From Octopus vulgaris (taxonomy: Eukaryota), in assembly GCA_951406725.2 (NCBI GenBank), contig OX597829.1, positions 2,480,001 to 2,544,000 of the forward strand: a stretch of 64,000 nucleotides of DNA, written 5' to 3'. Positions within the stretch are counted from its first letter, which is position 1, and the number at the start of each line of letters is the position of its first letter. Of the stretch, positions 5,866-32,246 are shown one piece after another. A program made the position numbers and the translations under genes. The notes under the pieces were generated by a model. It saw only the letters and a list, made by a program, of their open reading frames with translations. It ran no database searches and was not told where the DNA came from.

Positions 5866-6380
5866 ATGGATATATAATACTAAATGGGGCAAGAACGCAA
5901 AATATCCGGACAGTTAGGTGATACGAAAAAGGGACAACAAAACATCCAGATAGACGATACAAAGAAAACAAAGTCATTCGTAGTTTTCGCTCCTTAGTCA
6001 AGTACCAGATCATTTTCGCAATTTCGGCTGATTATACTTTAGATTGCTCCAATCTGGCCAGCCCCAAGGAAAAACTAAGCTAAGAGGATTACATTCCTTG
6101 GAAGAAAGCAGCGAATGTATACAAAAACAAGGACGGAAAAGAAACGGACAATGTTACACAAATACAGTAAAAAATATAATAACAGAACATAGCAACAGAT
6201 CTCTTTCGACTAAGGACGAATTAAATTAAGCTGGCGTGTGTGGAAATGAAGCCTTACGGCAAAGAGATGAGATATATGTAAATATCGAACGATGATCCGT
6301 GATAGAAAATTCAACAAAACGAGTATTCCATCTGGTGAGAGATAAGTATTATTTATTTAAATGTCACAATACATGCATTA

Positions 6381-6419
6381 AAAGTCAGTGAACAGTAATG
6401 ACGAAACCGGTATGACTTT
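6381..6419 (+). ncRNA. Minimal type I hammerhead ribozyme motif, G3-C8 swapped core
   Basis: aaagtca-GTGAACA-gt(aatg)ac-GAAA-ccgg-TA-tgacttt: 7-bp stem I, 2-bp stem II, palindromic stem III accggt, GUA triplet. Confidence 0.7.
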
Positions 6420-6610
6420 CTATATTGACTCATGCTAATGATTTCTATACTTCTTAATTCCACCTCAAATCATTTATTTGTATGTAGATATCTTTGTTTT
6501 TATATTTATTAAAGCCATTACTTTTATACCTAGTGCGCATTTTCTTCGTTTCTTTTTACTTTTCCTCTATTTATACCACGTGTAGATTCTTTTTATTCAC
6601 ACCTGTTTCT

Positions 6611-6651
<41 letters not shown>

Positions 6652-6709
6652 TAGCAGAGATACCCGGTTTTGCTCAGAATTAAAATGGCACAGTTTTTTT
6701 ATTGTTTTA

Positions 6710-6935
6710 CTTGTTTCAGTCATGTGACTGCGGCCATATGATTTATTCTTTGAAAGCCTAGTACTTATTGTATCAGTGTCTTTTACCGAACCGTTAAGTT
6801 ATGGGAACATAAACACAACTACATTAGTTGTCAAGCAATGGTGGAGGTACAGACATAGACAGACATCTGCACAAACATACACATGTATACGACAGTCTTC
6901 TTTCAGTTTCCGTATACGAAAGCCACTCACAAGGC
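6710..6935 (-). mobile_element. SINE 3' portion
   Basis: ttgtttcagtcatgtgactgcggccat...agcctagtacttatt...cactcacaaggct, shared with 28630-29065. Confidence 0.65.
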
Positions 6936-7023
6936 TATAATATATATGTGTGTGTGACCGCGTGTGTACCGTTGGCGATTTTTTCCCTCTGTCTTCCCTT
7001 CTCTGGATCTTTCCTTCTCCTAT

Positions 7024-7058
7024 GTTTCTGACGAAGAGCTCCGCTCGAAACGTTAAAC
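7024..7058 (+). ncRNA. Minimal type I hammerhead ribozyme motif in a ~210-bp (TA)n-flanked element
   Basis: gttt-CTGACGA-a-gagc(tcc)gctc-GAAA-cg-TT-aaac; stem III acgt; one extra A after A9. Confidence 0.7.
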
Positions 7059-7325
7059 CCTCCTTCTTTCCTTCTTTCCTGAGCGTCCAATAATACTATA
7101 TTTGTTCCACATCCTCGCGTTGTGTTTTTTTTTTGTGCTTTCATGTTTGGATTAACTATATACATATATATATATATATATATATTACGGAGATGTACTC
7201 GCATAGCAAGTAATTTGATCTGAGATCGTGTGCTGAAACGAAAACAATTGCAGCGTGGAAGGTGTTTATAAGCCATTTAAGAAACACACAAAAGCCGTTC
7301 GATTCACTCCAACATTTAAGTTTAA

Positions 7326-7375
7326 TTTGTCAAAATATTTTCGTCGCTAAAATCCGCGACCTGTTCACTGACAAA
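7326..7375 (-). ncRNA. Type I hammerhead ribozyme motif, G3-C8 swapped core
   Basis: Minus: tttgtca-GTGAACA-g-gtcgc(ggatttta)gcgac-GAAA-atat-TT-tgacaaa; 7-bp stem I, 5-bp stem II, palindrome aatatt. Confidence 0.65.
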
Positions 7376-7384
7376 GTCCGTGCT

Positions 7385-7458
<74 letters not shown>

Positions 7459-20053: not shown

Positions 20054-20126
20054 TCTTACTGAAGAGCCAGCCTGAGTAAATAAATACTATTTTTATTACT
20101 GAATTTGGCGAAACTGCAGTATAAGA
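20054..20126 (+). ncRNA. Canonical type I hammerhead ribozyme
   Basis: tctta-CTGAAGA-gcca...tggc-GAAA-ctgcag-TA-taaga. Confidence 0.88.
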
Positions 20127-20457: not shown

Positions 20458-20530
20458 TCTTACTGAAGAGCCAGCCTGAGTAAATAAATACTATTTTTAT
20501 TACTGAATTTGGCGAAACTGCAGTATAAGA
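20458..20530 (+). ncRNA. Canonical type I hammerhead ribozyme (second tandem copy)
   Basis: Same motif as 20054-20126, offset 404 bp. Confidence 0.88.
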
Positions 20531-31624: not shown

Positions 31625-32126
31625 CATACATGTACATGTCAGTGGTGACAGATTTCGTCTAAGCGTGCTTGCTGTGAGTACACATTATTGATAATGCCTA
31701 ATGCGACAGAAATATATTTAATGTCCTCATTCACCACTGCTGGGACGAGTTCCATCTTTGCCTGGTAAACACATATTGCATTTTTAAACACAGTGTGTTC
31801 GTGAGAGAAACCGCAATAAATTGTACCTGTCACAATGTAATTACTTTTAGTATAATATATAAATGGCTGTTTTTATCTAATATTCATCCTATTGCATGTA
31901 GCAGATATTCTTTTATTCTGTTATTTGTTTCAGTCATTTGATTGTGGCCATGCTGGAGCACCGCCTCTAGTCGAACAAATTGAGCCCCAGGACTTATTCT
32001 TAGTAAAGCCTAGTACTTATTCTATCGATCACTTTTATCAAGCCGCTAAGTTACGGGGACTAAACTCATCAACATCAGTTGTCAAGTGATGGTGGGAGGA
32101 AACACGCACAGACACACACACACACG

Positions 32127-32246
32127 GCTTACTACAATATCACGTTGAAAGCACCGGTTATCGTCCGATCACCGAAATTAAGCAACATCGAGCCTATGGA
32201 GTACTTAGATGCGTGACCGCTTGGGAAACCTAGGTGCTGTAAACGT
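32127..32246 (+). pseudogene. 5S rRNA pseudogene (isolated, full length, diverged)
   Basis: atatcacgttgaaagcaccggttatcgtccgatcaccgaaattaagcaac...agtacttagatgcgtgaccgcttgggaa matches the metazoan 5S pattern with helix-breaking changes; no immediate oligo-T terminator. Confidence 0.85.

Follow-up and report, generated by a model that had tools for sequence, protein, structure and literature searches.

The Watson-Crick pair C3-G8 in the core of the hammerhead ribozyme is known from crystal structures and double mutants. It forms in the tertiary-stabilised active core (PMC3884650), and G8 acts via its 2'-OH (PMC3884650, PMC8495972). With G8C the reaction is 10^5-fold slower, and part of this loss is recovered by C3G (PMC8495972); likewise, C3G/G8C partly rescues cutting in the hammerhead of Poseidon of Anolis, a PLE case that requires the element's protein (PMC11167929). 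A G3-C8 variant was stated to be more active with G17 than with C17, as data not shown there (PMC3884650).

Among natural hammerheads, U3-A8 variants have been described (Perreault et al. 2011, PMC3088659; PMC4209133). These are likewise a compensatory change at 3-8 and the only one named in the available text of PMC3088659, where stems II of 1-2 bp are also known. An earlier sequence-only reading of the locus studied here had noted both this natural variant and the partial rescue by the double swap. The closest described systems are the PLE hammerheads of Cervera and de la Pena 2014 (PMC4209133): like the motifs reported below, these are of type I with a palindromic loop 3 and a G10.1-C11.1 pair, lie in the pLTR of RT/GIY-YIG elements and occur in many solo and inverted copies. 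One additional residue inserted after position 9 and before 10.1 is a known trait of theirs, seen in one of our motifs, and their elements have an intron end close to stem I. As far as the available parts of that paper go, the core is C3-G8 with U3-A8 as sole named covariation, and G3 or A3 occurs in 0 of the 56 representatives of its Fig. S3, whereas octopus has two families fixed for G3-C8 and three for A3-U8. PLE motifs with a palindromic loop 3 cut poorly and do so as dimers (PMC4209133, PMC6765202). The dimer-cleaving PLE hammerhead variants referred to in PMC6765202 resemble ours in their short stem III and PLE association, and they cleave as dimers, as proposed here.

Two type I hammerhead motifs with G3-C8 cores

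The window, by which we mean the whole stretch of 64,000 nucleotides of Octopus vulgaris DNA that was analysed, had been reported to hold two type I motifs in which the CUGANGA box reads GUGAACA. Scanned with a descriptor that put no constraint on positions 3 and 8, the window gave both of them at exactly the positions reported, each with a 7-bp stem I, GUGAACA, GAAA, a palindrome and an NUH triplet. The features are as follows.

6381..6419, + strand: hammerhead motif A
6381-6387/6413-6419, + strand: stem I of motif A, 7 bp
6388-6394, + strand: core GUGAACA of motif A, with G3 at 6388 and C8 at 6393
6395-6402, + strand: stem II and loop of motif A, followed by GAAA at 6403-6406 and the palindrome at 6407-6410
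6411 and 6412, + strand: U16.1 and A17 of motif A, with the predicted cut at 6412/6413
7326..7375, - strand: hammerhead motif B
7375-7369/7332-7326, - strand: stem I of motif B, 7 bp
7368-7362, - strand: core GUGAACA of motif B, with G3 at 7368 and C8 at 7363, and the extra G at 7361
7360-7356/7347-7343, - strand: stem II of motif B, 5 bp
7342-7339, - strand: GAAA of motif B, followed by the palindrome at 7338-7335, U16.1 at 7334 and U17 at 7333, with the predicted cut at 7333/7332
7024..7059, + strand: minimal hammerhead with the canonical C3-G8 pair, from a third repeat family (about 6953-7185); it lies between motifs A and B and served as control

Motifs A and B share the three-way junction of type I hammerheads, with an open stem I, a stem II and a stem III that begins with A15.1-U16.1. 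U4, G5, A6, A9, G12, A13, A14, A15.1, U16.1 and H17 are all present in both motifs and in the majorities of their families. The literal consensus letters C3 and G8 are missing, with G3 and C8 in their place; Watson-Crick complementarity is kept, as G-C in A and B and as A-U, U-A or C-G in sister families. Loop 3 is a 4-nt palindrome in both (CCGG in A, AUAU in B), and the NUH triplet is GUA in motif A and UUU in motif B. The reported topology holds, with some corrections. In motif B a single extra G follows A9, ahead of G10.1. In motif A, stem II measures 2 bp in the window copy and 1 bp in most family A copies, and the minimum-energy fold of the A monomer consists of stem I only (z +0.2). Motif B alone folds into stems I and II as its minimum-energy structure (z -3.4; 1/200 shuffles).

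Under a strict descriptor, 464 kb of sequence (a 400-kb systematic sample taken at fixed steps, plus the window) gave 6 motifs, four with C3-G8 and the two G3-C8 motifs of the window, against 0 matches in reversed and complemented controls of the same 464 kb. The 400-kb sample alone yielded only 1 motif (C3-G8), which is too few for estimates of pair frequencies. On its own the 7-mer GUGAACA occurs at chance level (6 seen, 8.6 expected), and loose patterns run on the genome returned mostly background (2255 matches vs 1346 in the control, and 3622 vs 1622), although the latter nevertheless led to family G, described below. Motifs A and B had been expected to escape standard CUGANGA descriptors because of the swap. 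They do go unmatched in Rfam, at the gathering score and at E up to 10, but the swap is not the cause, since the canonical C3-G8 motif at 7024-7059 is missed at the same thresholds.

Both motifs lie in pLTRs of PLE families

Copies of both motifs were searched in the 2.8-Gb O. vulgaris genome, to which a protein with the label Octopus vulgaris aligns at 100%, and each belongs to a repeat family with the features of PLEs. Three further features of the window place the motifs.

6377..6650, + strand: 5'-truncated 3' pseudo-LTR fragment of PLE family A, an RT + C-terminal GIY-YIG element, ending in (TA)n
7185..7388, - strand: short copy of the young PLE family B, consisting of pseudo-LTR and tail between two (TA)n tracts and starting at a putative 3' splice site
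7186..7276, - strand: opening codons of the ORF of family B, whose ATG is at 7276-7274, with the same N-terminus as the ORF at L066:3970

Family A is old: 585 candidate copies were found, and the 40 that were scored are mostly 88-95% alike. Its longer copies (L061-L063, L067, L068) carry RT and GIY-YIG fragments upstream of the motif. Family B, with 1126 candidates, is young, 42 of the 52 matches listed being identical across the full query. One near-full family B element (L066) reads motif - ORF - 3' UTR - motif, and in another copy (L064), within an open stretch of 718 aa, RT and GIY-YIG motifs were identified by eye, the family B ORF having no match in Pfam; among the sisters of A, Pfam recognised RVT_1 (just under the cut-off) and GIY-YIG. 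Both motifs thus sit in the pLTR of elements that combine an RT with GIY-YIG at the C terminus (L066 and L064 for B, L061-L063 for A). In both families, copies form inverted pairs or tandems with the tail on one arm and have (TA)n targets, all of which are PLE features (PMC8557442). Tail-less family B arms end at about 7243. Most copies of either family are solo, inverted or ORF-linked rather than in the head-to-tail arrangement of non-LTR retrozymes. Both clades also have a cysteine linker before GIY-YIG, of the kind described for Neptune and Nematis; by motif likeness, the A clade may be Neptune and the B clade Nematis-like.

Long B copies contain a branch-point-like CTAAC, a pyrimidine run and an AG 13 nt before stem I, which suggests a splice acceptor upstream of stem I of motif B, at 7388; an intron end would then lie close to stem I, as in the elements of PMC4209133. 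Short B copies begin at this branch-point/pyrimidine/AG site (window 7388; L066:8800-8835), several of them with a few extra purine-rich letters, and look as if they had been copied from spliced RNA with a tiny first exon. The ATG of family B lies 56 nt downstream of the predicted cut.

G3-C8 is the family state

For each family, a sample of 30 copies was chosen by the downstream flank only, so that the core played no part in selection. All 30 family B copies have G3-C8, some of these being the two arms of one insertion. For family A, 29 of the 30 loci were scored, one of them the window itself, and 26 retain both positions: 23 read G-C, 2 G-U and 1 G-G, with C3 in none. One locus (L118) was excluded from the flank-selected tally since its match began late. 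Older B subfamilies with a different loop 2 retain G3-C8 as well. At positions 7368 and 7363 no alternative letter reaches 5% in contigs of 4 runs with 4 organism labels, at thin cover. G3-C8 is thus the family state of A and B and not decay, and a CUGANGA family consensus, which the sequence-only reading had named as grounds for abandoning its claim, was not found (30/30 in B, 23/26 in A). That reading had argued from seeing the pair twice in one window; this argument is weak, as both motifs are copies of repeat families.

Relatives of B and of A

The sister of B is family C, with a 58% identical protein (SH-aLRT 100). Its motifs are C3-G8 in 5/5, share the extra G of B and have a stem II homologous to that of B; C replaces the invariant A9, and loop 3 is non-palindromic. 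The family is young (L169-L171; motif at about L170:634-685), and many of its 1312-aa ORFs are intact. Judged by its ORF start, family G is an older relative of C; it has the inner stem I pairs, A7, extra G and homologous stem II of B but C3-G8, its loci having been picked through a C3-G8 core with the loose pattern (11/12 loci examined belong to G). A metagenome relative at 50% (L174), the sole motif-bearer among 11 metagenome relatives, also reads C3-G8, and no relative of family B was found among viral contigs. Since C, G and the metagenome relative carry C3-G8, the swap in B appears derived and its motif context native. Stem II covaries between B, C and G in the alignment, a rough check only, because stem I aligns poorly there and L174 has lost register.

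Sisters of A were located by protein search, with further copies of family F found through its 3' UTR, and their cores were read without constraint on positions 3 and 8. Among the 20 loci examined, three (L192, L194, L200) are interrupted ahead of the motif; some 1 kb behind L192 lies a C3-G8 motif, which was set aside, no tie to that element having been established. Family D (L183-L188, L190, L191) has U3-A8 in 8/8, with open frames up to 811 aa. The other sisters have A3-U8: 5 of 6 copies in family E1, 2/2 in E2, and 8 of the 9 copies with a motif among 10 loci of family F. An extra U lies inside the GAAA box in 5/6 E1 copies (GUAAA or AUAAA).

L195-L199, L201-L211, L193, L189: A3-U8 cores of families E1, E2 and F

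In both DNA and protein trees with midpoint roots, A groups with E at 100/100 and F falls outside. The upstream flank of A is common to E, and its short stem II region, CCGG loop, stem I and upstream flank match E2 and F. Proteins of the A and B clades share only 24-28% identity over short RT stretches and fall on opposite sides of a long branch. On these trees and motif contexts, A and B reached G3-C8 separately. By parsimony, family A would have passed from A3-U8 to G3-C8 by two transitions, possibly via a G-U wobble, and family B probably went from C3-G8 to G3-C8 by two transversions.

Covariation of positions 3 and 8

All four Watson-Crick pairs, G-C, A-U, U-A and C-G, thus occur at 3-8 within one genome, and a mismatch at 3-8 is fixed in none of the families sampled. 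The separate changes number at least three (A-U vs U-A, A-U to G-C, C-G to G-C), all ending Watson-Crick; the chance of three such outcomes is roughly 0.02-0.04, a crude figure from few events. Independent variation of the two positions, the other outcome that would have spoken against the initial claim, was not found, as 3 and 8 change together across families. Because sister families use other Watson-Crick pairings, selection likely keeps a Watson-Crick pair at 3-8 regardless of its orientation, for a working fold. The idea of a selected natural G3-C8 hammerhead is therefore upheld as regards the family state, separate origins and 3-8 covariation, while the word class overstated the case: the motifs are PLE type I hammerheads of the ordinary sort, with a 3-8 pair that changes among all four Watson-Crick forms. 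We also considered whether G3 cores avoid C17, A having A17 and B U17, with D and F mostly C17, and dropped the idea, two cases being an anecdote.

Cleavage and alternative readings

We favour, with moderate confidence, the reading that A and B are PLE type I hammerheads that came independently to G3-C8, fold the active core and would cut weakly, as dimers or assisted by protein. Thanks to the palindromic loop 3, stem III would be built jointly by two motifs on a tandem or read-through transcript; cutting would trim read-through RNA ahead of the family B ORF, and new DNA copies would come mostly from uncut RNA. In folding predictions motif A does better as a double-hammerhead dimer than as two monomers (-14.9 vs -7.2 kcal/mol); the B dimer gains little (-27.2 vs -26.6), and another dimer scores -31.3. 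Against catalysis stand the stem II of A, with 1-2 bp, its monomer without a hammerhead fold, and the UUU cut site of B. The predicted cut is the start of 0 of 30 B copies, 28 of which begin within 14 nt of the putative splice site, while 2 extend upstream. This lack is not specific to the swap, since the canonical 7028 family (motif 7024-7059) shows no such starts either (0/11 copies). Insertion from uncut RNA looks general, as 10 of these 11 copies begin upstream of the motif, the remaining one starting about 10 nt past the cut; it has also been reported for a lizard PLE (PMC11167929). Core changes expected to be harmful are tolerated in octopus families, namely C9 in C, the GAAA-box U in E1 and U4C in the 7028 family. 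The last of these is shared by 5/11 copies (window 7024-7059; loci L037, L134, L145, L159, L206), which look like a spreading subfamily with a weakened core.

Because selection on cutting may be weak, two readings that do without it keep some weight. The hammerhead fold, including the 3-8 pair, might be kept as a structure, either as an RT binding site or as an aid to splicing or translation, with cutting no longer of consequence. We hold this to be rather unlikely, although it would accord with the derivation of copies from uncut RNA, with the place of motif B 13 nt after the putative splice acceptor and 56 nt before the ATG (from the predicted cut), and with the spread of the C9, U4C and GUAAA variants. 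In the available text on the lizard PLE, moreover, hammerhead mutants leave in vitro insertion unaffected and no RNA-seq reads end at the cut (PMC11167929). Against this, the 3-8 pair is part of the active conformation (PMC3884650), and the families read retain U16.1 and H17 at the cut site. A distinctly less probable view is that the motifs are dead or nearly neutral relics, whose core is simply that of the founder and which match at 3-8 by luck, the events being few. The independent changes seen number only about 3, several families have damaged cores, and repeat families amplify a founder sequence without testing it. Against relics, U4, G5, A6, A9, G12-A15.1 and U16.1 are constant in A and B despite turnover in the stems and loops; the covariation of stem II, the persistence of G3-C8 across older B subfamilies that differ in loop 2, and the lack of any sampled family with a fixed 3-8 mismatch speak against them too.

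The favoured reading also supposes two origins of G3-C8. A and B resemble each other beyond the core, in four pairs of stem I and in the G that follows the core, making 12 letters in a row. A single origin, with the motif moved between clades by recombination or template switching, would account for this match, but it is largely refuted and we give it very little credence. The inner stem I, A7, extra G and stem II of B match those of its own-clade family G, which differs at 3 and 8, and A agrees with its own-clade E2 and F in upstream flank, stem I, CCGG loop and the short region of stem II. The independence of the two motifs therefore stands, each context being native to its own clade, and the 12-letter match is best read as coincidence or convergence because each context is inherited within that clade.

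Relation to described hammerheads

Reached on two occasions, G3-C8 adds a new core variant to the PLE type I hammerheads already known, and A3-U8 in sister families is a second variant that we did not find in the literature searched. Lunse, Weinberg and Breaker (2017) reportedly assembled a large catalogue of dimer-cleaving PLE hammerhead variants; it falls outside that search, in which no natural G3-C8 or A3-U8 was found, and may bear on novelty. Only U3-A8 is named in the text of PMC3088659, unlike the G3-C8 and A3-U8 of octopus, and the available parts of PMC10085705, PMC11014351 and PMC13725137 hold no natural case of either. The engineered C3G/G8C hammerheads (PMC11167929, PMC8495972) have the same pair and a partial rescue; these are man-made, whereas the octopus G3-C8 occurs naturally and has become fixed at family level, in one case in a young family that has many identical copies.

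More tentatively, and just short of an even call, we propose that octopus PLEs hold active hammerheads with all four 3-8 pairs, of which G3-C8 and A3-U8 are undescribed as natural, and that a large share of animal PLE ribozymes may be invisible to CUGANGA searches, including some in elements listed as hammerhead-less. Descriptors fixed on CUGANGA undercount hammerheads. One genome offers related families with G-C, A-U, U-A and C-G, and the path between these pairs can be traced on a tree. This gives evolutionary support for selection of the active fold in small PLE motifs, and bears on whether such motifs cut in vivo or are passengers. It also supplies matched natural constructs, namely B vs G, whose cores differ at 3 and 8 only, and A vs E and F.

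Other observations in the window

Two C3-G8 hammerheads with a long loop 2 lie 404 bases apart at 20054-20126 and 20458-20530, a pair that looks like a tandem repeat and is retrozyme-like. A weak U3-A8-like descriptor match at 31682-31724 falls in AT-rich DNA and may be due to chance. Finally, a divergent 5S rRNA copy (75 bits) with many unpaired positions is found at 32127-32245, perhaps a pseudogene or a SINE head.
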